Assembly (NCBI GenBank): GCA_965226885.1
Contig: CBDDEL010000015.1
Location: 384,001 to 448,000, forward strand
DNA from: Opitutales bacterium
GTDB lineage: Bacteria; Verrucomicrobiota; Verrucomicrobiia; Opitutales; UBA2987
Length of the DNA stretch: 64,000 nt
Direction: 5' to 3'
Numbering within the stretch: position 1 is the first letter of the stretch; the number at the start of each line of letters is the position of its first letter. The translations under genes and the position numbers were made by a program. Positions 10,769 through 63,240 of the stretch are shown one piece after another. Below the pieces are notes generated by a model. The model did no database searches. It saw only the letters and a list, made by a program, of their open reading frames with translations, and was not told where the DNA came from.

Positions 10769-13660
10769 ATGAAAAAATACTATGTTCGCTCAGTCCGGTT
10801 CCGCCGTCTTCCAGGGGCCTTTTTTTCCACTATTTCCAGCCTGCTGCTGTTGGCAGCCATGCTCCCGGGAGCCTCCAATCCGGAGGCATGGACACAAGAT
10901 ACCTTTGAAGATTTCTCCCGTGGCCAGCTTGGAAACGTCGGCAATAACATCTACGTAACCAGGGAGGGAAAGGTTGAAACCATCCAGCGATGGGATCTGA
11001 ACGAGGACGGATTCCTCGATATTATCTTCAACAGCACCCACGATAGAATGTCTTGGGTGCCCCCGACCCTGGCCGAAGTGGATTCGAGTGGAAAGGTTTC
11101 TTCCCGGAAACTGAGCGTTCTGGGTAGTAAAGCCGCGGTGGTCGGGGATTTTAATAAAGACGGCTATAGCGACATCGTCTTCATGCCAAACCAGCAAAAT
11201 GTGCAGGGCTCCTCACGCTATTACCTCACCATCATTTATGGAGGTCCGGACGGCTGGCCCGCGTCCAGAACACAACGACCGCTTCCCCTCTACAACCCAT
11301 CCGCTATTGAAAAGGCGGACCTCAACGCGGACGGCTGGCCGGACCTGGTGCTGGCGGAAAATTTTTCGGGGAAACCGGGATATCGCGATGGTCATTTCAT
11401 GAGTGTTTACTGGGGATCCGAAGATGGATTCAAAGTTGATTCCCTTTCCCAATTCGAGATCGATAAACCGGTCGGGATGGCCCGAGGCGATTTTGATGGC
11501 AGTGGGGGCGTTGATGTGGCCATTGTTGCGGCAGAATCGACGCTTTACACCCTCTACGCGACAAAAGACGCAGAACAAGACTGGGACTGGAAACCGATAT
11601 CCTATACACTCTCGGAAGGGAGTGCGGAAAAGGCAAAAGATTTGAATCTGCAGGCTGTTGCGGCGGAGGATATCAATGGGGACGGCATCCTCGATCTTGT
11701 TTTCGGAAGTTCCGAACCGCGTCTTTATATTCTCAATGGAGAATCAGGTAAGGATTGGGGCGCCCTTGAATCCATTGAAGCCTTTCCCGCCACCCAGGTG
11801 ACAGCCGGAGATATCGATGGGGACGGCGCGCCCGATCTGGTGCTGACCGATCTCAAACTGGGTCAAGCCATGGGAGGGGAAGCCGCCGGAGCCCGTCCCG
11901 ACAGCGTCAGTTCGGTGCGCATCCTATGGGCTGGATCGGATGGATACTCCGCCGACCGAATACTGGTGTTGAATATTCCGGCGGCCATTCACTCGGCTAT
12001 CGGGGAATTTAACGGTGACGGCCGTCCGGATTTAGCCATCGCCGTCCATCAAGGGACCATCACAACGGAAGCCGATTCTCTTCTCTATTTCGGAGCCTCT
12101 GAAAGAAGACTGGATCGGGCTTCAGAGGGCATTCCCACAAGCGGAGCCACCCAGGCGGTTGTGATACCCGGAATGAAGGACACGCCCGATAAGGTTGTGT
12201 TTACGAACAGTATGTTCACAACCTTGGGTGAACTGGTTCCCATACAGATCTACTGGGGCTCCTCGGAAGGCTTTTCACCGGATAATCGATCGGAATTCCC
12301 GAACCGCAGCGGGTATGAATCCAGCGCCGCCGATCTGAATAATGATGGCCAGGTTGACCTGGTATTTGTGAATTCCGGCCATGCCGGGCCTGCGTTTTCG
12401 AAAAACGATCCGGAATTGGGCGCCCATATCTACTGGGGGGGAAAAAGCGGGACGACTCCCGGTCCCAACAAATTCGATATCTCTCGAAGAACTGTTTTGA
12501 ATGAAATAAATCTCGGAGGCACCAATATTGCCGACCTGAATCGGGACGGATACCTCGATCTCATTCTCGGCGCCTTTGAAGGACCAGTCCTGGGCACGCA
12601 CCTGGTGATCTACTATGGGTCAAAGGAGGGATTCAGCGCTGCCGCTCGCGAGGCCATCCCCGTAACGGGCCGCTGCATTAGCCCCCTCGCGGCGGATCTG
12701 AACGGCGATAACTGGCTCGACCTCACCGTGGCTGCTTTTGATGCCGACACACTCTGGACCTTTTATGGCGGCCCGGATGGCTTTTTCGAGGAGAACCGAT
12801 CGAAGAACCGATCGAGACTCTACGTCTCGTCGCCGATCGATATCGAAGCGGCGGACCTGAACGGAGACGGGCATCTCGACATTGTGGCTTCCAGTTATTA
12901 TGACAAGAGCACCGGTTTATCCGATATGGGCAATCGGATTTTCTGGGGAAGCGCGGCCGGCTATACTGCGTCAAACGCCCAGTGGCTGCCGGGGACCGCA
13001 TCGATTGGCTTTGCCGTGGCGGATTTGGATGCAGACGGCTATCTCGACCTGTTCTGCCCCAATTACAATGCAATCGCCACTCGCGAGCATATTCCCTCTT
13101 ACCTTTACTGGGGTGGGCCCGATGGGTTTTCCCCTCAGCTTCGCACCATCATCGTGGCCACTTCGGCCCATGACGCTCAAGTCGCTGATTTTAATCGTGA
13201 CGGGCTTCTCGACCTGGCGTTATCCGAGCATTCAAGCAACAACGGACATATCATCGAATCCACGATATTCTATAATGATGGGAACCGCTTCTCCGACCCC
13301 GAGAAAACAAAGCTGCCCACCATCGGCACTCATTTTATGTGGGTCCAGGACATGGGAAATCTCTACCACCGGCGGTTTGAAGAAACCTACACATCAGAGG
13401 TCTTTTCCTGGAACCGATCCAGCCGCCATGGGGAACTGACCGTTCAGGCGCAAACACCTACGGGAAGCAGCCTGAAAGCCCAAGTCCGCTCTGCCGCAAA
13501 TTCCGGGGCGCTGGAAAACGCATCCTGGCGCCCGGTTAACGAGAATCGGCTCGCCCTCGCTCGCAAGGACCGGGTGCTCCAATACCGGCTCATGCTTCAT
13601 TCTCAATACGGGGATCTTTACCCGTCGGTTGAACGCGTTCAGGTAAACATCGGTCCCTGA
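10769..13660 (+). CDS. Secreted 14-repeat FG-GAP/VCBS-like protein, paralog 1 (963 aa)
   Basis: Signal peptide; WTQDTFEDFSRG..GNNIYV; 14 DxxxDG repeats (8th degenerate); YWG motifs; C-terminal QVRSA...LQYRL...P. Confidence 0.9.
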   Translation: MKKYYVRSVRFRRLPGAFFSTISSLLLLAAMLPGASNPEAWTQDTFEDFSRGQLGNVGNNIYVTREGKVETIQRWDLNEDGFLDIIFNSTHDRMSWVPPTLAEVDSSGKVSSRKLSVLGSKAAVVGDFNKDGYSDIVFMPNQQNVQGSSRYYLTIIYGGPDGWPASRTQRPLPLYNPSAIEKADLNADGWPDLVLAENFSGKPGYRDGHFMSVYWGSEDGFKVDSLSQFEIDKPVGMARGDFDGSGGVDVAIVAAESTLYTLYATKDAEQDWDWKPISYTLSEGSAEKAKDLNLQAVAAEDINGDGILDLVFGSSEPRLYILNGESGKDWGALESIEAFPATQVTAGDIDGDGAPDLVLTDLKLGQAMGGEAAGARPDSVSSVRILWAGSDGYSADRILVLNIPAAIHSAIGEFNGDGRPDLAIAVHQGTITTEADSLLYFGASERRLDRASEGIPTSGATQAVVIPGMKDTPDKVVFTNSMFTTLGELVPIQIYWGSSEGFSPDNRSEFPNRSGYESSAADLNNDGQVDLVFVNSGHAGPAFSKNDPELGAHIYWGGKSGTTPGPNKFDISRRTVLNEINLGGTNIADLNRDGYLDLILGAFEGPVLGTHLVIYYGSKEGFSAAAREAIPVTGRCISPLAADLNGDNWLDLTVAAFDADTLWTFYGGPDGFFEENRSKNRSRLYVSSPIDIEAADLNGDGHLDIVASSYYDKSTGLSDMGNRIFWGSAAGYTASNAQWLPGTASIGFAVADLDADGYLDLFCPNYNAIATREHIPSYLYWGGPDGFSPQLRTIIVATSAHDAQVADFNRDGLLDLALSEHSSNNGHIIESTIFYNDGNRFSDPEKTKLPTIGTHFMWVQDMGNLYHRRFEETYTSEVFSWNRSSRHGELTVQAQTPTGSSLKAQVRSAANSGALENASWRPVNENRLALARKDRVLQYRLMLHSQYGDLYPSVERVQVNIGP

Positions 13661-13755: not shown

Positions 13756-15255
13756 GTGCACCTGCACACTTTAGATTTCGTCGTCATCACCCTCTACCTC
13801 GTCGGCCTCCTGGGAGTTGGTTTTTTCTTTGCGGGCCGCCAGAAGGGCAAGGAAGACTACTTCCTCGGCAACCGGAAAATGCCCTGGTTTCTAGTCGGAA
13901 TCAGCGTCGTCGCAACTTTGCTTTCTACCGTAACCTACCTCGCGGTACCAGGGGAAATGATCCGTTATGGGATCGGGTTCGCATCTCTGCTCCTGTCCTT
14001 CATTTTTATCATTCCGTTCGTCAACCGGATCATCATTCCCTTTCTCATGAACCTGCGGGTGACGAGCGTTTACGAGTACATCGAAGAGCGCTTTAATGTG
14101 CAGACCCGCCTCCTGGCCGCTTCGGCCTTCATAATTTCCCGGATCATCTGGACGGGTTTGATCACCTACATGGCTTCCTTCGCCATTGCTTCCATGACCG
14201 GTTGGAATAAGCCCATGATTATACTGTTCATCGGTCTCATCACGACCGTATATACCTCCGCGGGCGGAATAAGGGCTGTCATGTGGACCGATTTTGCTCA
14301 GTTTGTCATCTTGTTTGGCGGGGCCTTGTTCGTTTTGTTATACATCGCCATCACTACCCATACCGGGCCGCTCACCTGGTGGGAGACCTTTTCCGCTGCC
14401 GGTAGAACCGAAGTGCCGGTATTCAGCCTGGACCCCGAAGTGCGGCTGACCATGGTGGGAATGATTGCTATCGGTTTTATCTGGAACATTTGCACCCATG
14501 GGGCCGACCAGGTAGCCGCTCAACGCTACCTGAGCACTCCCTCAGCCGCCGCCGCCCGACGCTCCGTCTGGATTTTTTCCATAGCAAACGTAGGCATGAT
14601 TTTGATCCTGATGGTTATCGGTCTGGCCCTCTTTTACTTCTTCTTCCTGAAATCCGGCCTCCCGGTACAGGAATTCCAGGAAAAAATCGCGCCCGAAGCG
14701 GACCAACTGTTTCCACGATTCATCGCAACAGAGCTACCTCCGGGAGTGTCGGGACTCATCCTGGCCGCTATTCTCGCTGCCGCAATGTCCAGCTTGAGTT
14801 CCGCTATCAATTCAATTTCCACAGTGGCGGTGACGGATTTTCTCGATCGTTTCAAAGTCCTCGAAAAGTACCAGGACCACCTCTACCTCGCTGTGGGGAT
14901 GGCGGTTTTAGGTGGTTTGCTGGGAATATTTTCCGCTCTCACCGTAAATCAATTCATGGAATCGGGAGAGTGGAATCTTCTGGAACTGACGGAACGCGCC
15001 AACCACCTCTTCGTAGCCCCACTGGCAGTTCTCTTTTTTGTCGGCATTCTTTTTCCCCGGGCCGACCCAAGGGCCGCCCTCGCCGGATTTTTCGCCGGTT
15101 TGGCAACCGCTATATTCGTCGCCTTCAGCAAGGAACTGTTTGGCATGGAAACCCCGATTGGTTTTATCTGGGTCCTCCCCGGATCCTTTTCAATCAGCTT
15201 TGTTGTCTCCTGGTTGATGAGCCTCGTCTTTCCCCAAAAACCTTCCGCCTCTTAA
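13756..15255 (+). CDS. Sodium:solute symporter (SSS family, SiaT-like)
   Basis: DYFLGNRKMPW, SVYEYIEERF, GGIRAVMWTD, AAAMSSLSSAINS; many TM helices; GTG start. Confidence 0.92.
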   Translation: MHLHTLDFVVITLYLVGLLGVGFFFAGRQKGKEDYFLGNRKMPWFLVGISVVATLLSTVTYLAVPGEMIRYGIGFASLLLSFIFIIPFVNRIIIPFLMNLRVTSVYEYIEERFNVQTRLLAASAFIISRIIWTGLITYMASFAIASMTGWNKPMIILFIGLITTVYTSAGGIRAVMWTDFAQFVILFGGALFVLLYIAITTHTGPLTWWETFSAAGRTEVPVFSLDPEVRLTMVGMIAIGFIWNICTHGADQVAAQRYLSTPSAAAARRSVWIFSIANVGMILILMVIGLALFYFFFLKSGLPVQEFQEKIAPEADQLFPRFIATELPPGVSGLILAAILAAAMSSLSSAINSISTVAVTDFLDRFKVLEKYQDHLYLAVGMAVLGGLLGIFSALTVNQFMESGEWNLLELTERANHLFVAPLAVLFFVGILFPRADPRAALAGFFAGLATAIFVAFSKELFGMETPIGFIWVLPGSFSISFVVSWLMSLVFPQKPSAS

Positions 15256-15276: not shown

Positions 15277-18129
15277 ATGCTCACCTCCCGTTACCGCTCA
15301 TCAATTCTCCCCCTCGCGATAGCCTGCACTTTCTTCGCCGTTCCTTTCGGCCTCTCGGGCGAGTCCGAAAAAAAGGCAGACCAGCGGACCTCCGGGAAAC
15401 GTGCCTGGGTTACTCAATCCTGGGAAGATTTCGAGGCCGGCACTTTCTCCGACGGAGGGGTCAACATGTATGCCGCGGCCGACGGCACCCTCAGGTTGAT
15501 CAATCTCTGGGATCTGAATGGGGATGGCAATATCGAGCTTCTTCTTCCCAACTCCCATGGGTCCAACAGCAAGCCGGACCTCTATATTTATTGGGGGCGC
15601 GACGAATGGTCCGAGGATTCCCGGACCCGTCTGCCGGCGAATGGCGCCAAATCGGCCGCCGTGGCGGATTTCAATCTCGATGGCTGGCCGGATCTGGTGG
15701 TCGCAAACCGTTCTAATGGTATAAGGAATGACCTGGACAGCTTCATCTATTGGGGAAGCAAAACCGGCATGTCGCAGGAACGGCTAACCCGGCTACCGGC
15801 TGTAGGACCCGAGGCGGTAGCCGCCGCGGACCTGAACGGAGATGGCTTCCCCGAAATCGTCATAGCGAACAACGGGATGGGTTATCACGTCGCGGAAGAT
15901 TCGTTTCACCGGTCTTTTATTTACTGGAATCGGGAGGGCGCCTTTTCCCCCCAGGACCGGACCGAATTGGAAACATCCAATGCCCAAGGAGTTGCGGTAG
16001 GCGATTTCAACCAGGACGGAAAACTCGATATCGCCTTTGCTAATAAAGGAAACGAGGAGGGAGAGGCCGGCATCTTTATCTACCTGGCGCAGTTAAGGGG
16101 TGAATTCGCAGATCAACCCTCGATACACCTTCCGGGTGAGCGCAGCAGCGCCCTGGTTGCCCACGATCTGAACGGTGACGGCTGGCTCGATCTGGCCCTC
16201 GCAAACGCCTTTCGCCTTAAGGACCGCGAAGGTGGAATTTACGACATCGTGGATACGGTCGCTCTGGATTCCCCGGTTTATTGGGGCGGTCCGGATGGAT
16301 TTTCCGAGGAGCGCGCAACACTGCTTCCCACTGTCAGCCCGACGGCGGTGGACGCAGGGGATCTCAACGGTGATGGCTGGCCCGACCTGGTATTCGCGCA
16401 AACCGCAGGTGGACACAGCTTTGTTTACTGGGGCAGTCCGCAAGGACCGGCCCGGAACCGACGCTTGCAAATTCCGGGCGCCCATTCAGCCACCCGTATC
16501 GCGGACCTGGATGGCGATGGGCGCAATGACCTCATGCTTTCCACAAACGTAGTATCCGGATCCAGCGATGCCCCCACTACCATTTACCTAGGGCGGGACG
16601 ATGGCCTGTCGCTCAGCGATACCCTGGTGGTCCCCTCCTCGCATGCCGGCGGCCTGGTGGCCGCAGATCTGGATCTGGACGGAAAGAAGGATCTGGTCGT
16701 CATCAACATCTCGTCGGGAGGGGGCATTGGAGCCCCAGCCTACATCTACTGGGGGGAGCCGGACGGACGGTTTTCCCCATCCAACCTCACCCTGCTCCCC
16801 GGCACCCAAGGCTCGGGCTCCAATGCGGCGGCCGATTTCAACGCTGACGGACACGTTGACATTCTTATCGCGCAAAACCCTCCCATCATTTTCTGGGGAG
16901 GTGAGAAAGGCTTTTCAGAAGAGCGATCGGAAGCCCTACCCTCTGAACCCGGCTTTTCAGGACGAACCGCGGATTTCAATCGTGACGGGTATCTCGACCT
17001 GGCCATGAGCGAATGGGAACCAGGCAGCGATTCGACTCACCTTTATTGGGGAGGCCCGGGAGGTTATTCTAAGGCAAACAGCCAGACTTTCCCGATCGGG
17101 GGCGTCCGTTATCACACCATCGCGGATCTGAATCAAGACGGATGGGTGGACCTGCTTTATCCCAATTCCTCCGATCAATATGTAGCCATTTTCTGGAACG
17201 GGCCCAATGGGTTTGCGCCGGTTAAAGAGACACGGCTGCCCGCGCGAGCCACCGTCGTCATTGAAGTCGCCGACCTCAACGGGGATGGATTCCTTGATGT
17301 CATTGTTCCGAACATGTATGATAAAAATCCGGCTCCAGGTAAGACCCGGGCATTCGGGGGATCACCCGAGGGAGACACCTTTATCTACTGGGGAGGACCG
17401 GAAGGGCCGGACCCCGGCAACCGCACCGTGCTGCCATCCATCGGAGTGCACGACGCGGCCGTCGCCGATTTAAACCGGGACGGGCACCTCGATCTGGTTT
17501 TGACCTCCTATCACGCCGGGGTAACCCGTTCTCATCCCTCTTATATTTACTGGAACAGCGCCGAGGGGTTCGACACGCGCCGGGTAACGATGCTACCGAC
17601 CCATTCCGCCGCCGGAGTCCTGGTGGCCGACTTTGACCGCGATGATTGGCCGGATATCTTCTTTGCCAACCATACCCGCGATGGCAATCATACTAACGAA
17701 TCCTGGTTGTATTGGGGATCGGCCGATGGTTTTTCACAGACCCGGCGATTGTCTTTGCCCGGGCTTGGCCCGCACAACCTGACCGTAACCGATATCGGTC
17801 ATATTGCAGACCGAAGTGATATCTGGACCTACACCTCCCAGCCCTATTATGCCGGCTCCGGCTCCCGCTTTACTCGTCTGGAATGGGAGGCGGATACCCC
17901 GCACCGCACTCGGGTCGCCTTCCAGGTCCGCGCCGCCTCCGATAGCGAGGCCCTGGGTGATGCCCCCTGGACCGGACCCAAGGGTCCGGATTCCTTCTGG
18001 GATACTTCCGGGGCCCGTCTGCCCGGTTCCCTTTCTCCGAACGCCTGGGTGCAATACCGTATCCGGCTGATTAGCCCGAATTCCGCTAATTCCCCGATCG
18101 TGCGGTCCGTCACTCTTTATCACCGCTGA
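15277..18129 (+). CDS. Secreted 14-repeat FG-GAP/VCBS-like protein, paralog 2 (950 aa)
   Basis: Same architecture as paralog 1; 14 repeats counted. Confidence 0.9.
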   Translation: MLTSRYRSSILPLAIACTFFAVPFGLSGESEKKADQRTSGKRAWVTQSWEDFEAGTFSDGGVNMYAAADGTLRLINLWDLNGDGNIELLLPNSHGSNSKPDLYIYWGRDEWSEDSRTRLPANGAKSAAVADFNLDGWPDLVVANRSNGIRNDLDSFIYWGSKTGMSQERLTRLPAVGPEAVAAADLNGDGFPEIVIANNGMGYHVAEDSFHRSFIYWNREGAFSPQDRTELETSNAQGVAVGDFNQDGKLDIAFANKGNEEGEAGIFIYLAQLRGEFADQPSIHLPGERSSALVAHDLNGDGWLDLALANAFRLKDREGGIYDIVDTVALDSPVYWGGPDGFSEERATLLPTVSPTAVDAGDLNGDGWPDLVFAQTAGGHSFVYWGSPQGPARNRRLQIPGAHSATRIADLDGDGRNDLMLSTNVVSGSSDAPTTIYLGRDDGLSLSDTLVVPSSHAGGLVAADLDLDGKKDLVVINISSGGGIGAPAYIYWGEPDGRFSPSNLTLLPGTQGSGSNAAADFNADGHVDILIAQNPPIIFWGGEKGFSEERSEALPSEPGFSGRTADFNRDGYLDLAMSEWEPGSDSTHLYWGGPGGYSKANSQTFPIGGVRYHTIADLNQDGWVDLLYPNSSDQYVAIFWNGPNGFAPVKETRLPARATVVIEVADLNGDGFLDVIVPNMYDKNPAPGKTRAFGGSPEGDTFIYWGGPEGPDPGNRTVLPSIGVHDAAVADLNRDGHLDLVLTSYHAGVTRSHPSYIYWNSAEGFDTRRVTMLPTHSAAGVLVADFDRDDWPDIFFANHTRDGNHTNESWLYWGSADGFSQTRRLSLPGLGPHNLTVTDIGHIADRSDIWTYTSQPYYAGSGSRFTRLEWEADTPHRTRVAFQVRAASDSEALGDAPWTGPKGPDSFWDTSGARLPGSLSPNAWVQYRIRLISPNSANSPIVRSVTLYHR

Positions 18130-19464: not shown

Positions 19465-20595
19465 TACCAAATCGCAAAAGGATTGATAAAGATTAAAAAA
19501 CAGCTATAAAGGCGGAATGAGAAGATATATGGGAACCGATGAAGACCGTGAACGTATCAAGAAATTGCTCAACAAAGAGGCTGTCGGCTGGCGTAAAGAG
19601 CGTTTGGTGGCATTAAAAATGGGCTTCCAGCCGCACCACAGCATTGATGAAATTGGAGCCATCGTGGGCCGAGGCAAAGCGACGATCCAGCGTTGGTTTG
19701 ACAAATATCGTGCTGCAGGGCTCGGGGCGGTGCTTACACGCGCCTACAAAGGCGGGATCAAAAGCCGTTGCGACAAAGAGGTGGAGGCCTTCTTGCTCAA
19801 TGGTTTGAAGGTCGCGCGCTGGAACACAGCCGTTCAGGCGGGGCAAGAGCTGGAGCGACATTTCGGGCGCTCCTTCGCCTACAAGACGGTGTGGCGATGG
19901 CTAAAAAAATGCGCCGGGGTGCTTCGAGTCCCTCGCCCCGTGCATGAGAAACGGGACTCGGCAAAAGCGGAAGCGTTCAAGCGAGACTTTTTTAAGATCC
20001 TCCAGGAGCTTTCCCTCACCCGAGGCAATCGGGTTCGGGTGTGGTTTGCCGATGAAAGCCGTTTTGGTTTGCTTCCGGTGTACCGCCGGTGCTGGACGCA
20101 AAGAGGGCTTCGGCCGCACAAAAAATATCAGACAAGATACCAGTGGAGCTACTGTTACGGAGCCCTCGACGTGGTCAACGGCGAGATGGTATGCATCCAA
20201 ACCCCTAGCACGAATCTACAGTGGACGGAGGCTTTCCTCCAACAGATCAAAAAGCAATATCCTGAGGAGGAACATGTGGTTGTATGGGACGGGGCAGGCT
20301 TCCATCCGCACGACTCGGAGCACCCCAACGTCCCCCCGGGCATACATATCGTGAATTTGCCGCCGTATAGTCCTGAACTCAACCCGATTGAAAGACTTTG
20401 GGATATGATACAGGATCAAACGGCCAACAAACTGTGGCCGAGCATTGAGCGACTCGAAGAAGTCGTCGCAACCCATCTCAAAGACTGGTGGGAGGACACT
20501 GAAAAAGTCCTCTCTTTAGTTGGCGGAGGCTGGCAGCACATTCAAGCAAACGCTTCTGCCAAATAACTTATTATCATACCTAATGAGATTTGGTA
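19465..20595 (+). mobile_element. IS630-family insertion sequence (~1131 bp)
   Basis: Ends TACCAAATCGCA / TGAGATTTGGTA; (T)TA duplicated at 19462-19464 and 20596-20598. Confidence 0.92.
19517..20566 (+). CDS. IS630 transposase (single ORF)
   Basis: WFADESRFG, VVWDGAGFH, LPPYSPELNPIERLW. Confidence 0.95.
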   Translation: MRRYMGTDEDRERIKKLLNKEAVGWRKERLVALKMGFQPHHSIDEIGAIVGRGKATIQRWFDKYRAAGLGAVLTRAYKGGIKSRCDKEVEAFLLNGLKVARWNTAVQAGQELERHFGRSFAYKTVWRWLKKCAGVLRVPRPVHEKRDSAKAEAFKRDFFKILQELSLTRGNRVRVWFADESRFGLLPVYRRCWTQRGLRPHKKYQTRYQWSYCYGALDVVNGEMVCIQTPSTNLQWTEAFLQQIKKQYPEEEHVVVWDGAGFHPHDSEHPNVPPGIHIVNLPPYSPELNPIERLWDMIQDQTANKLWPSIERLEEVVATHLKDWWEDTEKVLSLVGGGWQHIQANASAK

Positions 20596-22173
20596 TTAGG
20601 GATCGGGTTTTTCTTCGCGGGCCGCCAGAGGGACAAGGAATCCTACTTCCTCGGCAACCGGAAGATGCCCTGGTTTCTGGTCGGAATCAGCGTCATAGCA
20701 ACGATTCTCTCGACCGCGAGTTACGTGGCTGTACCCGGAGAAATGATCCGATATGGTGTCGGATTTTCAGCCTCCCTTCTGGCCTTCATCCTTATTATTC
20801 CGTTTGTGAACCGGATCATCATTCCATTTCTCATGAATTTGTCCGTCACGAGCGTTTACGAGTATATCGAAGAGCGCTTCAGTTTGCCGACCCGCATCCT
20901 CGCCGCTTCGTCCTTTATATTTGCCCGTCTCATCTGGAGCGGCCTGATCATCTACATGGCTTCCTTCGCCATTGCGGCCATGACCGGCTGGAACAAACCC
21001 CTGGTTATCCTGTTCATCGGTCTCATCACGACGGTTTACACCTCCGCGGGTGGAATCACTGCGGTCATATGGAGTGATTTCGCGCTGTTTGTCATCCTGT
21101 TGGGCGGGGCTATATTCGTGCCGGGATACATCGCCATCGCCACCGACGCGGGTCCCCTCGCCTGGTGGGAAACCTTTTCCGCGGCAGGCAGAACCGAGGT
21201 GCCTGTATTCAGCCTCGACCCTGGGGTGCGGCTGACCATGGTGGGAATGATCGTCTCCAGTTTTATTTGGAACATCTGCACTCATGGGGCTGACCAAATA
21301 GCCGCCCAACGCTACCTGAGCACCCCCTCCGTTGCAGCCGCCCGCCGCTCGGTCTGGATTTTTTCCATCGCAAGCGTAGGCATGATTTTGCTTCTGATGC
21401 TTGTTGGGTTGGCCCTTTCTTTCTTTTTCTTCGAGCAATCCGATCTCACGGTCCAGGAATTCCAGGAAAGTATCGCTCCTCAAGCGGACCAGATGTTTCC
21501 CCGGTTCATCGCAAACCAGCTTCCTCCGGGAGTGTCCGGATTGATCCTGGCCGCCCTTCTCGCCGCCGCCATGTCCAGCCTGAGTTCGGCTATCAATTCC
21601 ATTTCCACGGTGGCGGTTACCGATTTCCTGGATCGCTTCAAAGTTCTTCAGAAATACCAGGACCACCTCTACCTCGCTGTCGGCATGGCGGTTTTAACCG
21701 GGCTGCTCGGGGTAATTTCCGCTTTAACCATAAACCAGTTCATGGAAACGTCGGAATGGAATCTCCTTGAACTGATGCAACGCCTCGACCACCTCTTCGT
21801 CGCCCCGTTGGGGGTTCTCTTTTTTGTGGGCTTTCTTTTTCCCCGGGCCGATACGCGGGCCGCCCTCACCGGGTTCATCGCCGGTGTGGCCACCAGTGTA
21901 TCCATCGCTTTCAGCAAGTCGCTTTTCGGCCTGGAACAACCAATCGGGTTCATCTGGGTCATTCCTGGATCCTTTTTCATAAGCTTTGTTGTCTCCTGGT
22001 TGATGAGCCAGTTCTTACCCAGAAAATCACTCACTCCCTGAATCTATACTTCCATTCTTCCCGTTCACGGTATTGAATTTCCTCTCAACCACACCAAGCT
22101 GGAGGGCCGCTGGGCAGAAGGCGGTGCCAAGTTCATGGATATCGGACAGAATTCTAAAGAGAGGTGATTTCGG

Positions 22174-30042: not shown

Positions 30043-30096
30043 CGGGGAGCAGAACCCTGTCTACAATCTGCCAAATCAAAAATGTGGGGCAATATT

Positions 30097-34658: not shown

Positions 34659-34752
34659 AAGTGATTATAAAATATGTGCTCTTCAATATGTATGTGCAAT
34701 GTTTTCATAATGCCGATTGCCGATCGAAAAGCCTGCGTAGCGCACTGTCTTG

Positions 34753-35825: not shown

Positions 35826-35832
35826 TTGAAAT

Positions 35833-35958: not shown

Positions 35959-37066
35959 TTACGAAGACCAGGCGCGCCGAAAGAATCGCAGAGCATTGCC
36001 GTGAAGTATTCCGTTGATGTCTTCCTCGTGGATTCCAGCTTTACGCAAAACCGCAGAGAAGCTTTGTAGATCCGCAATGGTGTCTACATCGGTTGGCGTC
36101 AACTCGGCGCCGAATCCGCCATCCATGTCAGTCCCGATCGCGATATTGTTCAATGATCCGCCGGCCAGATTCGCGATATTCTCAATGTGAGGTATGAGAC
36201 CGTCCATTCCGTACTTGGACTCCCACGACTTCGGCGGGGGAAGGTTTTCCCACACCACGTCGGGATCGATGAAGAACTGACAGAACACCAACCTGATGAT
36301 CCCATCACGTCGAATGACCTCGCGGATCATATCATCCGTCAGATGGCGCTGGCCTTTGACAATTGATCGACACGTGCAATGCGAGGCGAGTACGGGACCA
36401 TCCCAAAGTTCGAGCGACTCCCACACGGCCTGGGTCGGCCATATGGGTGATGTCGAGGATCATTCCGGCCTCGCGCATCGCTTGGTAGAGTGGCTTGGCC
36501 GCGGGTTTCAATCCCCCCTCCGTAAATGTGCCGTGAATATAGGTGTTGTCGCCGAAGTGCGCGGGACCGACGACCCTTAACCCCGCATCCCACCAGAAGG
36601 CGACATCGTCGGGATTTGCGATCGGATCCGCACTTTCCATGGACAGGATGTGATAAATGGGAGTGCGATCGGTCGGATTCTGCCAGACCTCGACCGCTTC
36701 GTTGAGGTCGTCCAGCCCCCCAACAGGCTTGATATCACCGCGCCGCGCCATTGCCTGGTAGTAGGCCAAATGCCCGCGCCCCGTTGCCATGGTTTGCTCT
36801 TGCGTGCGCATGCCGTCTCGCCGGCTGTCCCGGTAGCGCTGTTCAATGCGCGACATGATCGTGCTGAGCATGATGCCGACGCTTCCGCGGCGCATTTCCG
36901 GAAATGTCACCGTGCACAGTCCAGTATCAAAGTCATCCGCGACTTGGGGAATGTCGTTTTCTTCCTGCCGGCGGACCTGGTGAGCCGTCAAAGTCAGATC
37001 GCGGTTCCAAAACAGCGCGTCCCAGGCGAGGTCGAGATGCAAATCGATGATTAAAGGTTGTGCCAT
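35959..37066 (-). pseudogene. Membrane dipeptidase (M19) family amidohydrolase, +1 frameshift
   Basis: IIDLHLD, LSMESADP, ILDITHMAD|QAVWE (extra base in the run at 36432-36434), ASH, IGTDMDGG. Confidence 0.85.
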
Positions 37067-37093
37067 GGCACGCTTAAGGGCCGGCGGTAGCAA

Positions 37094-43090: not shown

Positions 43091-43730
43091 TCACTCCACG
43101 ACGGCATACTGAACAGTGAGCTTCTTCAGTTGCTCGGGAACAGGTTCAGAAATGCTGTTGAAGGGGCAAACGCTCGGCAATCCGGCCTCTGAACGATGCA
43201 ATTCAAGTGGCGGGCACGAGAGGTCCTGGTGGTAGAAACGACTGCTGGGAAAGATGTCGGCCGGGTAGGTGAAATAATCGAGCATCCCCAACGCGCTGCA
43301 GATCGCACCGCCGGTAGCGCTCTCGAGCATACCACCCACCCAGCATGGGATACTTACGTCGTGGAAGATGTCGTGGATCGCTACCGTATTGGTCAAACCA
43401 CCGGCCCTCTCGGGCTTGATATTCACGTAACGGCAGCTCTTCAGCTCGACAGCCTGCTCGGCATATCTCGCCGAGGTCATGCTCTCATCGAGACAGACTG
43501 GAGTCTTGATCCTCACCTGCAACCGCGCATGGTCCACCAGATCGTCGTGCTGCAAGTGGTTGCTCGATCATGGCAAGGTCAAACTCGTCAATCTTTTCAA
43601 AAAGAGCGAAATCGGAGAGGCGGTAGCCGCTGTTGCAGTCGATGTGGATGATTTCTTCAGGAAACCGGCGGCGCACTCTCTCCAGGACAGGCATGTCCCA
43701 CCCGAGGCGGAACTTCAGCTTGAGTAGGCA
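43091..43730 (-). pseudogene. 5'-truncated, frameshifted o-succinylbenzoate synthase/N-acylamino acid racemase (enolase superfamily)
   Basis: KLKF..GWD, IDCNSGY, MIEQPL|QHDDLVDHARLQ, PVCLDES, NIKP, CWVGGMLES; N-terminal capping domain absent. Confidence 0.82.
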
Positions 43731-45564: not shown

Positions 45565-48399
45565 GTGACCTTGCGACGAACGGCGATTGTTTCCCCAATT
45601 CTACTCGGAATTTTCCTCGCCTCTGTGTCAGGGGTCTATGCGACCGAAACCTGGACCGTTTCGACCTTCCTCGAATTCAGCGAAGGGACCCTCCAAGACG
45701 GCGGCGCCAACACCTATGTGACCGCAGCGGGGGAGATCCGCCTGGTTAGCCAGTCGGACCTGAATGATGACGGATTTCTCGACATCGTATTTGCCAATAC
45801 CCATGACAACAACACCCAAATCGACCTCTTCATCTACTGGGGAGTTGACGGTTTCGAAGTAGGCCAACGGACGCGATTGCCGAGCGATGGAGGCCAGGCG
45901 CAGGCCATCGCCGATCTCAATCGCGACGGGTTCGAAGACCTCGTTGTCGTCAACGGAAACAACGGGGTAAAGTCGAACACCAACTCCTACATTTACTGGG
46001 GAAGCCAGGATGGATTCGACGAGGAGCGTCGGGCGGAACTTCCGACTAACGGAGCCACCGGAGCAGCTATCGAGGATCTCAACGCGGACGGATTTCTCGA
46101 TCTGGTCTTTGCCAACAGCGCGAATACGAAGGACACGTCAATGAAACCGGGGAACTACTCCACCATCTACTGGGGCTCAAAAGAAGGTTTCTCAACCAAG
46201 AAACTCTCCCACCTCCCTACCCAGGCCGCTACCGACGTTAAAATAGCCGACCTGAACACGGACGGTGCGCTCGACATCGTTTTTTCGAATCAAGGCGATG
46301 GACAGCAATCGGGCAACGTAATGATTTATTGGGGAAAAGGGCAGGAGAAATATTCCGAAAAGCGGCGGACGACTCTCCCTGGCGAGCGGAGTGCCGCCCT
46401 CGCCCTCGCAGACCTCGACGGCGACCGCTTCCCCGATATCGTGGTGGCCAACCGTTACCGCCCCCTCAAACGTGACCCGGAGGAGAAACGCGAACTGGAC
46501 ACGGACTCTGTCACGGACGCCATCTCTTCCTTCATATACTGGGGTTCCAGAGAAGGTTACGAGGCGGCACGCCGAACCGAATTGCCGACGCTGGCGGCGG
46601 CAGGAGTGGCGGCGGGCGACCTCAATGGAGACGGTCTCATCGACCTGGCATTTGCCAATGGTCCGCAACTGACCGGCCACGCCGCCGCGTCTGCTGGAGC
46701 CGGCTCCTATGTCTACTGGAACAGCCCGCAGGGCTTCCAGGCTCACCGGCGCAGCACCTTTCCGACCCTCAATCCCCAAGATTGTCTGATCGACGACATC
46801 AACAACGACGGCCACCAGGACCTCATCTTCGCCAACGATAACGACGCGCGGTCGCATCGCACGACATCCTACGTTTACTGGGGAGGGTCGGATGGGCTTG
46901 ACAGCGGCCGCCGGCTGGATCTGCAGACTGTAGGCGCCGCGAGTATCGCCGCGGGCGACTTTGACAAGGACGGAAAGAAGGATCTTGTCTTCATCAACGC
47001 GATCGACGGCTCCGCCGGCGCGCCGATACCCGCCTACATCTACTGGGGCAATGAAACGGGGGATTACTCCGTCGATCAGCGTTCGGACCTCTTGCACCCC
47101 TACGGTTCTCCGGCCGAAGGACACGCCACCTCGGATATTGACAACGACGGATATGTCGACCTGTTCCAGGGGGGGGCCGAGAGTGCGGTTTACTGGGGCT
47201 CGAAACAGGGGTACTCGACGGGCGACAAAACCTTGGTCTCGTCTAACATGTCCTTCAGCGGCCTTATCGCGGATTACAATCGTGACGGCTACCTCGATAT
47301 TTCCATCAGCGATTTCGCGGCGGGCGGGGTGGCCAGCCTGCACTGGGGCGGCCCGATGGGGTTTGCGGGCAACAATCAATTCATTTTCCAAGCCGACGGA
47401 ACACGCTGCCAATCGTTTGGCGACTTCAACGGCGACGGTTATCTGGATATCGTTTTTCCGAACGTCCACAGCGAGTTGGTGATCTACTGGAACGGTCCAA
47501 ACGGATTTGACAACGTGCGAAAAACCATACTCCCGGCAGCACTGACGGTGGCCACAGAGGTCGCCGATCTCAATCGGGATGGTCATCTCGATATCATTTC
47601 GTGCAACCTGACAACCGCGGATGGCGACTATAAAGCGGGCACCTTTATCTACTGGGGAAGCGCGGACGGTTTTTCTAAGTCACGGAGGCTGGTCCTGCCT
47701 ACCGTTGGCAATGAAGACGCCGCCGTGGCGGACTTGAACGGCGACGGCCACCTGGACCTGGTTCTGACCAGTTACCACGCAGGGGAAACGCGTTCCCACC
47801 CCTCCAGCATCTACTGGAATAGCGATCAGGGGTTCGACCCCGAGCGGGTTACCATGATGCCGACCAATTCAGCCTCCGGCGCCACCGTAGCGGACTACAA
47901 TTACGATGGATTCCCGGACATCCTCTTCTCCAACCACCGCCTGGAGGGGAGCCATCGCAACGATTCCTTTCTCTATTGGGGAGGGCCGGATGGCTTTTCT
48001 CCGGAACACCGCACACTTCTGCCCGGCCTAGGGCCTCATTTGTTGATGGTGAACGACATTGGCAACATCGCTCACCGGGGCGAACGATATGATTACATCT
48101 CCAGGGTCTTCGACTCGGAACGCGCCGCTGACTTCGAATCACTGGACTGGGATGGCGACACTCCCTTTGCCACAGGCATCGAGTTTCAAGTGCGCGCCGC
48201 TCCTTCCTCCGAAGCGATCGAGAAGACTCCCTGGGCAGGGCCGGAGGGACCCGGGAGCTATTATCGCAAGCATCACTCTCTCCTGAGTGGTCTGGCCAAG
48301 GACGCCCAGCATTTCCAGTTCAAGGCGAGCCTCATTTCGCCCAACGGCGCCAATACCCCGGTGCTTCGTTCAATTTCCGTCAACTATCGGCATCATTAA
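45565..48399 (+). CDS. Secreted 14-repeat FG-GAP/VCBS-like protein, paralog 6 (944 aa)
   Basis: WTVSTFLEFSEG..GANTYV; 14 repeats; same subfamily as paralogs 2 and 5. Confidence 0.9.
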   Translation: MTLRRTAIVSPILLGIFLASVSGVYATETWTVSTFLEFSEGTLQDGGANTYVTAAGEIRLVSQSDLNDDGFLDIVFANTHDNNTQIDLFIYWGVDGFEVGQRTRLPSDGGQAQAIADLNRDGFEDLVVVNGNNGVKSNTNSYIYWGSQDGFDEERRAELPTNGATGAAIEDLNADGFLDLVFANSANTKDTSMKPGNYSTIYWGSKEGFSTKKLSHLPTQAATDVKIADLNTDGALDIVFSNQGDGQQSGNVMIYWGKGQEKYSEKRRTTLPGERSAALALADLDGDRFPDIVVANRYRPLKRDPEEKRELDTDSVTDAISSFIYWGSREGYEAARRTELPTLAAAGVAAGDLNGDGLIDLAFANGPQLTGHAAASAGAGSYVYWNSPQGFQAHRRSTFPTLNPQDCLIDDINNDGHQDLIFANDNDARSHRTTSYVYWGGSDGLDSGRRLDLQTVGAASIAAGDFDKDGKKDLVFINAIDGSAGAPIPAYIYWGNETGDYSVDQRSDLLHPYGSPAEGHATSDIDNDGYVDLFQGGAESAVYWGSKQGYSTGDKTLVSSNMSFSGLIADYNRDGYLDISISDFAAGGVASLHWGGPMGFAGNNQFIFQADGTRCQSFGDFNGDGYLDIVFPNVHSELVIYWNGPNGFDNVRKTILPAALTVATEVADLNRDGHLDIISCNLTTADGDYKAGTFIYWGSADGFSKSRRLVLPTVGNEDAAVADLNGDGHLDLVLTSYHAGETRSHPSSIYWNSDQGFDPERVTMMPTNSASGATVADYNYDGFPDILFSNHRLEGSHRNDSFLYWGGPDGFSPEHRTLLPGLGPHLLMVNDIGNIAHRGERYDYISRVFDSERAADFESLDWDGDTPFATGIEFQVRAAPSSEAIEKTPWAGPEGPGSYYRKHHSLLSGLAKDAQHFQFKASLISPNGANTPVLRSISVNYRHH

Positions 48400-48854: not shown

Positions 48855-49919
48855 TTACCAGTCGACCCGCAGTTTGGTCCAACGGATACCAAAAGGTCCC
48901 TCCTCCTTGCACCAGTGCGTCGCCAGGATGGTGCCATCTTGCAATTTGATCGCCGTCGGGAATCCAAACATAAAGCTATCAAACACCTCCACTCCCGTCT
49001 CCGCGTCCTGTTGCCGTTCGCGCCGGGCCCCGCCGTCGTACATCAGTCCTTCATAATGCAGGTTCCAGGCGCTGTCGGTGAAGGTCTCCAGGTTCATGAC
49101 AATGCCTTGATCCCCATAGCGACGGTTATAGAGGACCAGGAGCCGGTCCCCGCCGAGGGGAATCGGGGTCATGGTTTGGCCCCATATGCCGGTGGATCGG
49201 GGCGGGCTCCAGGTTGATCCATTGTCGCGGGATAGCACGAAGCTGTCGGGCTGGTCAACCGCATCACCCAGAGTCACGGTCCAACAGGTTGCTATCAACA
49301 GGTCCGGGGAGACTTGCGCCAGCTTCTGCTCCAGGTAGCCGAATTTTTTTTCGGGATCCTCGAAAACGACGGCCAGACGCGGCCATGTTTGACCGCCGTC
49401 ATCAGAAATGGATGCCAGCACTTGCTCTCCCAAACGGTCTTCAGTCGGCAGGGTAGCAGATGGCGCCAGGATACGTCCGGATTCCAGCGCCAAAACTCCA
49501 TGGGAAATCTCGATGCGGGAATGCCCGCCCATGGGAACTGCCTGAGGTCCCGACCATGTGCGACCCCCATCGGCCGAGCGGAGCAGCACCGGTTCATTGG
49601 TCCCCTCCCCGAATTTGGCTTGGCCCTCACGAAAGTAATGCCCACCGTAGGCAAAAACGGTTCGTCCATCGGCGGCAAGACTCAGCTTGAGTGCATAGCT
49701 AGAAGGTGGGTTCGAGGTGGGCGAGACAAGAGTCCCTTCGAGCATCCAAGACTCACCATTGTCCGTTGAGCGGGCCCAATCGGAACCACCAGTGACAAAG
49801 GGACCATCCCCGACGTTGAAGGAGCAGAGAAGATCGCCGTCGGGCAGTTGTACCGCCTGGGGGAACGCCGAATCACGTTGATCGACCCAACCAGTTCCGA
49901 GTAATTCTATCGCGGGCAT
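48855..49919 (-). CDS. BNR/Asp-box sialidase-fold protein
   Basis: Four Asp-boxes: STDNGESW, SADGGRTW, SDDGGQTW, SRDNGSTW; no signal peptide. Confidence 0.85.
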   Translation of the reverse strand: MPAIELLGTGWVDQRDSAFPQAVQLPDGDLLCSFNVGDGPFVTGGSDWARSTDNGESWMLEGTLVSPTSNPPSSYALKLSLAADGRTVFAYGGHYFREGQAKFGEGTNEPVLLRSADGGRTWSGPQAVPMGGHSRIEISHGVLALESGRILAPSATLPTEDRLGEQVLASISDDGGQTWPRLAVVFEDPEKKFGYLEQKLAQVSPDLLIATCWTVTLGDAVDQPDSFVLSRDNGSTWSPPRSTGIWGQTMTPIPLGGDRLLVLYNRRYGDQGIVMNLETFTDSAWNLHYEGLMYDGGARRERQQDAETGVEVFDSFMFGFPTAIKLQDGTILATHWCKEEGPFGIRWTKLRVDW

Positions 49920-60366: not shown

Positions 60367-63240
60367 ATGTTTTCTGCATTGAGCATGATTAGAGATATCA
60401 CGAAAAGCTTGAGCCTGACTCTGGCCTTCCTGGGCGCATCCTGCTTTTGCCTTGCGGAAGTTTGGCGGGAAAGCTCCTTCGTCGACTTCGCCGACGGCAC
60501 CTTCGGAGACTCGGGGGCCAATATTTACATTTCCGCCGCGGGCCGCATGCAAACGGTCAATCGCTGGGATGTGAATGGAGACGGGCATATCGATATTCTC
60601 AGTGTAAACAGTCACCCGTTGATCGAGATGCTCGACATGTCGCTCTACTGGGGAAACGGCAAAGATTTCAGCATAAAGAGACACAATTACATTCCCGCCG
60701 ATGGTCCCATGCGCCTGGCGGCGGGTGACCTCAATGGCGACGGCTGGGCGGATCTGGCTGTGGCCAATTTTTCCAACGGCACCTGGACAAGCATGGATTC
60801 GTCCGTCTATTGGGGAAATCCCCGGAAATTAAATAAAGACCCGGACGGGAACCAGTGGTTTGCTTACCCATTTACGGGTAAGACCGATTTGCCGGCCAAA
60901 AACACCCAGGGGGTGGCCATTGCCGATTTTAACCGGGACGGGTTTCCCGACATTGTTTTCGCCTTTTCCTCCGGCTACTGGGAATACCGCGGAGAAGCAG
61001 GCGAGTCGCCATCACGAATATACTGGAACGGGGGCGGTGAATTCGATCCAGCCAATTTTACCGAATTGGGAACCAAAGGCGCCGCCGATGTGGCTGCCGG
61101 AGATATTAATGAGGATGGCTGGCCGGACCTCGTATTTGCCAACGGATCGGGCGATTATTCCTATCTTTATTTAGGCGGCAAAGAAGGGTTTTCCACGGAA
61201 CGGCGAATGGAACTACCGACCCGCAAGGCTCACGCCGCAGCCATTGCAGACGTGAACAACGACGGCCGCCCTGACCTCCTTTTTGCCAACGAGTCCGGCG
61301 GGACATCTTTTGCCTACATAAACGAAAATGGAGAATTCCCCCTGGACAAACGGTTGGAGTTTACCACCCACACGGCCAAGGATGTTCTCGTTACCGACTT
61401 CAACAAGGACGGCTTTAACGATGTATTTTTTTCCAACCATCTGTTCTCTATTACCGGCAAAGCGCGATTAGGAAACCGTTTGATCGAATCGTATCTCTAC
61501 TACGGTTCCGCCGATGGTTTTTTGCAAGAAAATCGCATAGACTTGCAAACCATCGGGGCATGGGAAGCCAGCGCGGCCGACTTGAACGGCGATGGCTGGA
61601 CCGATTTGCTGATTTGCAATTTTAAGGAACACTACTCTTTCGAAGTCCCGTCTTTCATTTATTGGAATGGCCCCGATGGTTTTGAAATCACCAGGCGAAC
61701 CCCGCTTTACGAGCACGGCGCCCAGGGCAATGTCATCCACGATTTCAACAATGATGGAAACCTGGATATTATCATCACCTCAATGATGGGCGCCACACGG
61801 GGCGAGTACGATCCGTCTTATCTTTATTGGGGAAACCCTGACGGTAATTATAATGCCGCCAATCGTATTTCGCTGCCCGGACGGGAAGCTTACGAGCAAG
61901 GGATGGCAGACCTGGATGACGACGGTCAGGTCGATATACTCCTGCTCAACCAGGGAGAAGTGACCCGCTACGAGAACGAAATGTGGATTTACTGGAACGA
62001 AAAAAACCAATTCGATCCCTGGCGCATAACGGGCCTTCCCGCCCATGCCGGGGTGGGCGTCGAAGTGGCCGATCTGGACCGGGACGGATACATCGACGTT
62101 ATTATTTCCAACAACAAAGATTATGAAGATGCGGATTTGAGTGAAGAAGGCGCTTTCCCCGCAACGAAGCCCGGCTCCTACATTTACTGGGGTGGGAAAA
62201 ATGGTTGGGTAATAACCAATCGCACAACTCTCAATATCTCCCGCGCCCGCTCGCCATCCATTGCCGACATCAATCAGGACGGTCATCTCGATCTCGTCTT
62301 CGCGGGTACGGGCGCTTCCATTTTTTATGGAGACGGAACGAGAAATTTCAGCGACCAAAGGCGTCAAAAAATACTCGGCACATTAGGTCAACTTAATCAT
62401 CAAACCGAGGTAGCCGACCTCGACAAGGATGGTTATCTCGACATTGTTTTCGCCGGGCCGAAAGTTCTCATTTATTACGGAGACAATTCCCATTCCTACT
62501 CGGCAGAGAAAAAAATCACACTGGAATTACAGGCCAAAACGATGAACATTGCGGATGTCAATGGAGACGGCTGGCTGGACCTGGTTTGTCCCCTATACAA
62601 ATTAGACGGGCGGCGTTCCCTCGACTCCAACATTCTGCTGGGAAGCTCCCAAGGTTTCTTCCTCGAAAAGCGCATCTCCCTACCCACCGATGGCGGCACG
62701 GGCAGCCTGGTCAGCGATTTTAACGCGGATGGTTATGCCGATATTTTCTTTTTCTGCCATCGCAAAGACGGAAGCGCGGAGGAAATCGGAAATTTTGGCG
62801 ATCATCATACCAATTCGCGGCTTTACTGGGGAAGCGCCAACGGTTTTAAACGGAATTATTTTTTAGCCATTCCCAGTGTCGGCGCACACTACGATGCGGG
62901 GATGGACATCGGCCATATAAAGGATCGGAGTTTCAAGTGGGATTACACATCTTCTCCCTATTTCACCAAGGATAAACAGCTGCTTTCGATCGATTGGGAG
63001 GCGGAAACGCCCGGATCTACCTCGGTTAAATTTCAAGTGCGTATTGCGGAAACTGAATCCGCCCTCAATCAATCGCAATGGCTTGGCCCAAACGGCCCCG
63101 GCTCCTATTTTACAAAAAAGAAAAGCTCAATGGAAAATCTTCAGACAAAAAACTGGATGCAATACCGGGCCATTCTGGATACCGCAAACGGCGCCAATTC
63201 TCCTGTATTACAAACGGTGGAAATTGAGTTTAAACCTTAA
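60367..63240 (+). CDS. Secreted 14-repeat FG-GAP/VCBS-like protein, paralog 7 (957 aa)
   Basis: WRESSFVDFADG..GANIYI; 14 repeats; FQVRIA...WMQYRA. Confidence 0.9.
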   Translation: MFSALSMIRDITKSLSLTLAFLGASCFCLAEVWRESSFVDFADGTFGDSGANIYISAAGRMQTVNRWDVNGDGHIDILSVNSHPLIEMLDMSLYWGNGKDFSIKRHNYIPADGPMRLAAGDLNGDGWADLAVANFSNGTWTSMDSSVYWGNPRKLNKDPDGNQWFAYPFTGKTDLPAKNTQGVAIADFNRDGFPDIVFAFSSGYWEYRGEAGESPSRIYWNGGGEFDPANFTELGTKGAADVAAGDINEDGWPDLVFANGSGDYSYLYLGGKEGFSTERRMELPTRKAHAAAIADVNNDGRPDLLFANESGGTSFAYINENGEFPLDKRLEFTTHTAKDVLVTDFNKDGFNDVFFSNHLFSITGKARLGNRLIESYLYYGSADGFLQENRIDLQTIGAWEASAADLNGDGWTDLLICNFKEHYSFEVPSFIYWNGPDGFEITRRTPLYEHGAQGNVIHDFNNDGNLDIIITSMMGATRGEYDPSYLYWGNPDGNYNAANRISLPGREAYEQGMADLDDDGQVDILLLNQGEVTRYENEMWIYWNEKNQFDPWRITGLPAHAGVGVEVADLDRDGYIDVIISNNKDYEDADLSEEGAFPATKPGSYIYWGGKNGWVITNRTTLNISRARSPSIADINQDGHLDLVFAGTGASIFYGDGTRNFSDQRRQKILGTLGQLNHQTEVADLDKDGYLDIVFAGPKVLIYYGDNSHSYSAEKKITLELQAKTMNIADVNGDGWLDLVCPLYKLDGRRSLDSNILLGSSQGFFLEKRISLPTDGGTGSLVSDFNADGYADIFFFCHRKDGSAEEIGNFGDHHTNSRLYWGSANGFKRNYFLAIPSVGAHYDAGMDIGHIKDRSFKWDYTSSPYFTKDKQLLSIDWEAETPGSTSVKFQVRIAETESALNQSQWLGPNGPGSYFTKKKSSMENLQTKNWMQYRAILDTANGANSPVLQTVEIEFKP

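Follow-up and report, generated by a model that had tools for sequence, protein, structure and literature searches.

A stretch of 64,000 nucleotides from the genome of an Opitutales bacterium (Verrucomicrobiota; GenBank assembly GCA_965226885.1), lying on contig CBDDEL010000015.1 (C15:384001-448000) and referred to here as the window, carries seven long open reading frames (ORFs) that encode members of a single family of FG-GAP repeat proteins. The genome comprises 5.48 Mb on 17 contigs. In window coordinates, the ORFs lie at 10769..13660 (p1, + strand, 963 aa), 15277..18129 (p2, +, 950 aa), 27241..30042 (p3, +, 933 aa), 30082..32925 (p4, +, 947 aa), 37094..39955 (p5, - strand, 953 aa), 45565..48399 (p6, +, 944 aa, with a GTG start), and 60367..63240 (p7, +, 957 aa); their lengths thus fall between 933 and 963 aa, and together they occupy 19,962 bp. 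A first-pass annotation made from the sequence alone had listed seven intact paralogs at these positions, and all of them are present and intact. Only the start of p4 needs amending: 30097, where it had been placed, is an in-frame ATG, and the longest ORF begins five codons upstream at 30082; the gene itself stands. When aligned end to end, p2-p7 are 27-33% identical to p1, and p5 is ~50% identical to p2 or p6.

All seven proteins match FG-GAP_3 (E 1e-53 to 1e-81 in 7/7; 8.8e-53 for p1) and FG-GAP in Pfam, the remaining hits being weak, repeat-driven noise, and none of the seven received a family assignment in NCBIfam. In p5, the member that was modelled, a signal peptide (residues ~1-38) is followed by an N-terminal cap (39-61), 14 blades (~62-841), and a C-terminal module (~846-953). 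Conservation was assessed, in p5 numbering, across 21 members drawn from this genome and from seven other phylum labels. The N-terminal motif segment recognized at first pass is widely kept, with W42, G53, G59, and N61 present in 20-21 of the 21, and the proposed ~100-aa C-terminal domain is equally real, S854, R885, W898, Q926, and P940 being invariant in 21/21. Each protein had been said to contain exactly 14 calcium-type repeats. A strict regular expression (Dx[DNS]x[DN]..xx[DEP]) recovered 14 motifs in five of the seven, p2 among them, but 13 in p4 and only 11 in p1, several of whose motifs are degenerate. Sec-type N-termini, with a charged start, a hydrophobic run, and small residues ahead of the cap, were recognized by eye in 7/7, in agreement with the signal peptide ascribed to each window paralog. 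No lipobox occurs in these N-termini, and the seven paralogs contain no membrane anchor, sorting tail, long stalk, hydrophobic C-terminal segment, or extra Pfam domain.

The signal-peptide region itself shows small in-frame duplications. At the 5' end of p5 (39913-39954, minus strand), an imperfect 21-bp tandem duplication makes YHRISIK appear twice; a database protein 99% identical to p5 (P0001) has a single YHRISIK and is 7 aa shorter. Likewise, SGVYAT occurs twice in the copy at C15:341308 and once in p6.

An AlphaFold2 model of p5, built from a 28-row alignment, reached a predicted local distance difference test score (pLDDT) of 90.1 and a predicted template-modelling score (pTM) of 0.86. 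DSSP analysis of the model resolved 14 four-strand units in residues 62-813, one more strand, and a strand-rich C-terminal domain. In a wide structural search, residues 106-480 matched seven-bladed propellers at Z 27-31, including aldos-2-ulose dehydratase (AUDH, 4a7k; Z 31.2, 347 residues aligned, root-mean-square deviation 3.2), the EPTP domain of LGI1 (Z 30.6), integrin alpha (~Z 29), and CRTAC1 (Z 27.7). The C-terminal half of p5 (residues 478-953), folded alone (pLDDT 85.0, pTM 0.86), was again matched to propellers, at Z 21-24 (LGI1 24.2, AUDH 22.9, Bap1 22.4). The structure prediction and fold search that the first-pass annotation had called for, run here on p5 and on its C-terminal half, thus point to two predicted propellers, and the models together with the searches of both halves support its reading of 14 repeats as two seven-bladed units. 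Only six repeats lie between residues 481 and 841, and the seven-bladed target 3hfq_B aligned 305 residues over the model range 82-837, which suggests that the first blade (~62-103) most likely closes the second propeller, joining blades 9-14. When the whole chain was submitted to Foldseek, only multi-propeller scaffolds (DDB1, integrins, and AUDH) were returned, at template-modelling (TM) scores of 0.2-0.3, so the architecture as a whole has no match. A single-sequence search of the PDB gave 0 matches, and a family profile matched 53 PDB sequences at E <= 0.1, all of them CRTAC1 or integrin alpha.

Within the predicted second propeller, a small set of residues is conserved. Y746, H800, and H806 are invariant (21/21), R752 is kept in 20/21 and H834 in 19/21. 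H92 is kept in 16/21 and replaced by Gln in the other five, four of which belong to a clade without a signal peptide. DSSP analysis of the p5 model places these residues in two kinds of loop, the B-C loops of blades 13, 14, and 1 and the D-A loop that follows blade 14; in the family alignment, the equivalent loops of the other blades lack them. As passages of PMC8023676 place the calcium motif of VCBS propellers in loop AB, and given the meander topology of the blades, propeller 2 would carry the patch on one face and the calcium loops on the other. Its composition and conservation suggest a candidate binding or catalytic site.

The C-terminal module has a much wider distribution of its own. 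A profile of the last ~106 residues of the 21 members, run against a library of 1.84 billion proteins, retrieved 4,744 representatives at E <= 0.001, of which 1,603 scored at E <= 1e-10. Many carriers are proteins of 1,000-6,000 aa with 2-29 tandem copies, each spanning profile positions ~6-105. Pfam hits were found in 11 of the 20 carriers scanned: LamG-like, DUF2341, and fn3 in three each, RCC1 and Kelch in two each, and FG-GAP in one. The module alone matched nothing in Pfam at E <= 1 beyond noise, and Pfam holds no model of it. Judged from these sequence matches, the C-terminal ~100 aa (37097-37420, minus strand, in p5) is an autonomous, widespread module, and it looks like an undescribed domain. 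The N- and C-terminal segments had been proposed to form one split beta-sandwich; the autonomy of the C-terminal part, which is complete by itself and occurs in tandem in unrelated giant proteins, argues against this. A ~94-aa ORF at 35793-36077 (minus strand) matches the hidden Markov model (HMM) of the module weakly (E 1.5e-5); it may be what is left of another member, or the match may be due to chance.

Searches of the genome with HMMs built from the family alignment revealed 13 full-length members, all intact open frames: the seven in the window and six outside it. Of the latter, C15:341308-344172 and C15:351890-354907 closely precede the window, a third lies at C15:603827-606655, and contigs C12, C13, and C17 have one each; nine of the 13 are packed into ~107 kb of one contig. 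Pairwise identities among the genomic members are mostly 24-51%. Recent duplicates also occur, the C15:341308-344172 copy being 97% identical to p6 and the C12 copy 93% identical to p4. In a quick maximum-likelihood tree of 39 rows, the window paralogs fall in separate, well-supported clades mixed with members from other phyla. For example, p1 and g9 cluster with two Acidobacteriota members (L004 and L017), and this subclade has a short C-terminal domain; p2 clusters with an Opitutaceae and a Planctomycetota member; p4 clusters with a Paenibacillus member and with members of G039, a relative of the window genome; and the C17 copy clusters with members from Latescibacterota, Spirochaetota, and Armatimonadota. 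Because these clades are shared with other phyla, the set is an assembly of old subfamilies and not a recent local burst.

A word-indexed homolog search, in which 8,000 candidates were scored, gave 4,474 proteins at E <= 0.001. The best 120 matches listed are 879-1025 aa long, and the matches listed are named only 'VCBS repeat-containing protein', 'FG-GAP-like repeat', or 'hypothetical protein'. Near-full-length matches (query ~40-950) were confirmed for 12 of the 78 loci returned, carried by Acidobacteriota/Terriglobia, Latescibacterota, Armatimonadia, Planctomycetota, Spirochaetia, Chlorobiota, Zipacnadia, and Paenibacillus nasutitermitis. When at most five candidates were scored per genome, the family turned up in 13 of the 301 genomes sampled from the window's own phylum; among 41 relatives, seven have it, and G039 alone has 14 copies. 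The family is thus rare within its own phylum and patchy across phyla. A protein atlas returned only FG-GAP clusters of like length, from Acidobacteriota and Bacillota. Length and architecture are conserved in homologs of other phyla, with no variation in repeat number, in keeping with the fixed layout proposed at first pass. The architecture had also been described there as matching no characterized family, and this holds: no dedicated Pfam or NCBIfam model, solved structure, or paper was found, the literature covered being that on FG-GAP/VCBS proteins, polysaccharide lyases, and Verrucomicrobia. The family therefore belongs to the known VCBS/FG-GAP kind and is a distinct, conserved double-propeller architecture within it.

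Export is common in this family and yet is no family trait, since members without a signal peptide exist. The Paenibacillus member starts right at the cap motif and lies just downstream, on the same strand, of genes for an ABC importer (a solute-binding protein and two permeases) and a pyridoxal phosphate-dependent enzyme. Signal peptides are also absent from the C17 copy, L002, probably L003, and 3 of the 14 members of G039, and the Latescibacterota member is among those without one. In a survey of 142 sequences by a crude rule, 105 N-termini resembled signal peptides and 10 were short; 25 sequences escaped the motif regular expression, and by eye the majority of these N-termini are hydrophobic. 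The label 'secreted' used at first pass thus fits the seven window copies but not the family. An extracellular capture role had been proposed as well, and nothing in the analysis shows capture. One G039 member without a signal peptide (L089:552-6424) lies beside a corrinoid methyltransferase set, consisting of a RACo activator, a B12-binding protein, a URO-D-type methyltransferase, and a homocysteine S-methyltransferase-type gene.

The genes among which the seven members lie are largely those named at first pass, namely sodium:solute symporters (SSS), aldolases, an epimerase, and amidohydrolases: two SSS, one HpcH, two DHDPS, and one RraA gene were confirmed, together with DUF4432, PTE, M19, Amidohydro_2, and M81 genes. 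PhyH, cupin, aldo-keto reductase, BNR_2, and alpha/beta hydrolase genes and an enolase fragment are also found between them. One symporter (13756..15255, +; PF00474 E 1.9e-37; TIGR00813) separates p1 from p2, and the second lies at 20590..22041 (+). Upstream of p1 is an HpcH/HpaI-type aldolase (9721..10509, +), a family also found near members L004, L005, L007, and L017. A PhyH-type Fe/2-oxoglutarate dioxygenase is encoded at 7774..8589 (+). The BNR_2 gene adjoining p6 (48855..49919, -) encodes a six-bladed-propeller-type protein 29% identical (E 5e-40) to a neighbour of L017. An M19 dipeptidase-family gene (35959..37093, -) abuts the stop codon of p5; it is split into two ORFs here, and in G039 (L095) an intact M19 gene lies in one strand run with a member. 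Directly downstream of p7 is a right-handed beta-helix (NosD-like) gene (63267..64000, +, running past the window end; L086:140-946).

Upstream of the window, the island continues through C15:330-384 kb, a stretch that adds many more oxidoreductase, aminotransferase, and enolase genes as well as a sulfatase and a TonB-receptor gene. In the genome as a whole, 3 of 12 SSS genes and all three BNR_2 genes fall inside the 3.6% of the sequence that is no more than 10 kb away from a member. All 13 family members are intact, and four window neighbours are broken: DUF4432 (18245-19332), PTE-family (34750-35825), and M19 (35959-37093) genes each consist of two overlapping ORFs, and a C-terminal fragment at 43091-43555 is the sole remnant of an enolase-superfamily gene. 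The window also holds at least six transposase/integrase genes, at 19517-20566 (DDE_3), 40251-41741 (ISNCY/IS5-like), 51256-52119 (rve), 53475-54731 (DDE_Tnp_1_4), 55081-55572 (IS1 fragment), and 57190-58473 (DDE_Tnp_1). Members on C12, C13, C15, and C17 are flanked by further genes for 456-aa DDE_Tnp_1_4 transposases, whose Pfam scores are nearly identical. The transposases, the four broken neighbours, and the six members outside the window were absent from the first-pass annotation.

Three further window genes merit mention. A different FG-GAP protein of 761 aa (1721-4006) has seven classical repeats ~72 aa apart, lacks the family C-terminal domain, and matches the family HMM at no better than E 1.2e-17; beside it lies a DUF4915/TIGR03032 gene (4063-5184). 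Directly upstream of p3, an 887-aa ORF (24524-27187) has no match in Pfam, NCBIfam, or the PDB, and the protein atlas gave weak leads (0.81-0.90) to GHL6/GHL10 glycosyl-hydrolase-like clusters. GHL10-like neighbours were seen at four loci.

To what extent this context is shared was tallied by hand, within ~6 kb of 39 members (13 from this genome, 14 from G039, and 12 from other phyla). Aldolase-type (HpcH, DHDPS, or RraA), PhyH, and enolase-superfamily genes each neighbour 10/39 members, SSS genes 8/39, BNR_2 genes 7/39, and Kelch/NanM genes 4/39. Seven of the PhyH cases come from G039, in which no aldolase-type gene lies near any of its 14 members. Some arrangements recur across genomes: the order enolase, member, Kelch/NanM, M20 is common to two Acidobacteriota metagenome-assembled genomes (MAGs; L004 and L017); the beta-helix gene behind p7 has a counterpart, 47% identical, immediately behind the member of a Chlorobiota MAG (L008); and the BNR_2 neighbours are homologous across phyla. 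A catabolic gene context thus recurs across phyla, as had been predicted. Of the neighbours singled out at first pass, symporters lie near only 8/39 members. Candidate single substrates, implying catabolism of sialic-acid, deoxy-sugar oxidative, hydroxyproline, or ectoine type, were considered and dropped, the neighbour sets being too different between loci.

In G039, a ~740-aa protein with an Ig_7 domain adjoins seven of the 14 members (L091, L092, L094, L096, L097, L099, and L100); its full-length copies are mutually 59-77% identical, and no counterpart was seen at the other loci compared. At L095:11-2245 of the same genome, one ORF encodes a Kelch/NanM-like propeller (~1-230) and an SSS transporter (285-687), representing either a fusion or two merged genes.

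The first-pass annotation had further suggested that the family works in a polysaccharide-utilization type of system with SSS transporters in place of SusC/D. SSS transporters are inner-membrane symporters, and for that reason they cannot replace the outer-membrane SusC/D pair; the proposal mixes compartments. Moreover, symporters are near few of the members, and TonB-dependent receptor genes occur in the island and beside one homolog. No SusD or TonB-receptor gene was found among the 37 window ORFs scanned; a Plug-domain receptor lies ~2 kb upstream of the window.

Several known propeller proteins resemble the family in part. GH74 xyloglucanases carry two seven-bladed propellers in one chain, with blades of the Asp-box/BNR and not the FG-GAP type, and none appeared among the Foldseek and wide fold-search matches listed. 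CRTAC1 (9etn) gave the best PDB profile match (E 1.8e-13) and a fold match of Z 27.7 at 19% identity, and it shares the FG-GAP propeller; however, it has one propeller and the family has two. The ASPIC/UnbV domain (PF07593), expected behind the propeller in the CRTAC1/ASPIC-UnbV family, gave no Pfam hit in any of the seven paralogs at E <= 0.01. Rhamnogalacturonan lyases of family PL11 (YesW/YesX) consist of a single, eight-bladed propeller, and in Bacillus their genes occur in the context of an ABC importer, downstream of which the gene of the Paenibacillus member lies as well. PL11 was absent from the 53 profile-matched PDB sequences and from the best 50 matches listed per fold search, and no propeller enzyme of any polysaccharide lyase or glycoside hydrolase family was among the best 50 listed in each wide search. 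AUDH has cupin domains and a lectin domain after its propeller; the seven paralogs have no Pfam hit to a cupin or lectin domain. It is the best match for propeller 1 and a high match for propeller 2, but its identity to the family is 11-12% and it reaches a whole-chain TM of only 0.2-0.3. Passages of PMC8023676 describe AUDH as a sugar-metabolism enzyme on a VCBS-type propeller, and passages of the same paper and of PMC9218822 link the catalytic propellers of PL11 lyases to the VCBS cluster, so that this supercluster includes enzymes. With the VCBS/FG-GAP supercluster (PF13517, PF01839), the family shares the repeated Dx[DN]xDG calcium motif, at ~50-60-residue spacing, and the seven-bladed propeller fold of its predicted models; it differs in its fixed two-propeller tandem of ~950 aa, its N-terminal cap, the patch on blades 13-14, and the specific C-terminal module.

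We favor the interpretation that the members are substrate-specific processing enzymes of the hydrolase, lyase, or dehydratase type, and assign to it a probability of about 0.4. Each would be a soluble protein with a Sec signal peptide (absent in one clade), an N-terminal cap, 14 calcium-motif FG-GAP/VCBS blades arranged in two propellers, and a C-terminal module that would fold as an autonomous ~100-residue beta-sandwich. Tyr746, Arg752, His800, His806, and His834, with His92 in most members, would form the active or ligand site. Oligosaccharides or other small carbohydrate-derived nutrients would be processed in the periplasm, or in the cytoplasm by the clade without a signal peptide, and the products would be passed to neighbouring transporters and to aldolase, dehydratase, and dioxygenase pathways. 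Deep subfamilies common to other phyla would be expected if the members differ in specificity. Several observations weigh against this interpretation. The folds retrieved are those of generic propellers, with lectins, integrins, and scaffolds accounting for many of them, and the fold and profile searches gave no likeness to a known catalytic domain or active site. The clustering of the patch is deduced from topology, and its His, Tyr, and Arg residues might just as well bind a ligand or a metal in a receptor that has no catalytic activity. In addition, the C-terminal module typically belongs to giant multi-domain proteins that are probably located at the surface; the neighbours mix sugar-type with amino-acid- and peptide-type enzymes, from which no single substrate emerges, and include no aldolase-type gene in G039; and the neighbour counts have a rough control from one genome and include related, non-independent loci.

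As a second and somewhat less likely reading, we consider non-catalytic calcium-dependent binders of carbohydrates or other ligands, that is, lectin-like periplasmic receptors or scaffolds that serve the neighbouring enzymes and transporters and use the patch as their binding site. Passages of PMC9218822 and PMC8023676 present VCBS/FG-GAP propellers mostly as recognition modules, such as lectins and integrins, and the best fold matches of the family include LGI1, integrins, Bap1, and the PLL and BP39L lectins. The co-occurrence of the C-terminal module with LamG, fn3, Kelch, and DUF2341 in giant proteins, and the presence of many diverged paralogs beside differing enzyme sets, would also suit binders. 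On the other hand, a cytoplasmic clade would be unusual for a capture lectin, residues such as His, Tyr, and Arg are typical of catalysis or metal binding, and the architecture is a fixed, single-copy one with an invariant repeat number. Cell-surface adhesion or self-recognition, the usual reading of FG-GAP/VCBS proteins, seems improbable. Although the Pfam hits are to FG-GAP and FG-GAP_3 only, the window copies have signal peptides, and the fold is integrin alpha-like, no anchor, lipobox, sorting tail, or long stalk occurs in 7/7, export is not obligate, and the genes form part of catabolic runs that resemble operons; its tight length also sets the family apart from repetitive VCBS proteins, whose blade number is reported to vary in passages of PMC9218822. 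An adhesin therefore fits poorly, the members without a signal peptide arguing directly against it. A relationship to Tc toxins (TcB) or other toxin-related propeller proteins is very improbable: weak matches to PF12256 (TcdB_toxin_midN; E 5.6e-9 to 0.0053) were obtained in 7/7, but they cover stretches of 20-40 residues of FG-GAP repeat, none passes in any row, and neither an RHS, Tc, or other toxin domain nor a toxin-type neighbour was seen in the window.

If the members are indeed processing enzymes, one can ask, still more tentatively, whether they constitute a previously unrecognized class: double-propeller, probably metal-assisted enzymes for carbohydrate or sugar-acid processing, with an active site formed by blades 13, 14, and 1. 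Such a class might comprise many specificities, spread by horizontal transfer together with matching catabolic cassettes, and might provide accessory nutrient processing in Verrucomicrobiota, Acidobacteriota, Planctomycetota, and Bacillota. The Tyr/Arg/His patch offers a direct mutational test, and the paralog sets (13 here and 14 in G039) offer a panel for specificity screening. Should the members prove to be binders, they would still represent a distinct receptor type tied to catabolism. If they are enzymes, thousands of genes now named 'VCBS repeat-containing protein' would gain a function, and sense could be made of the unassigned catabolic islands that surround them in bacteria of sea and soil.

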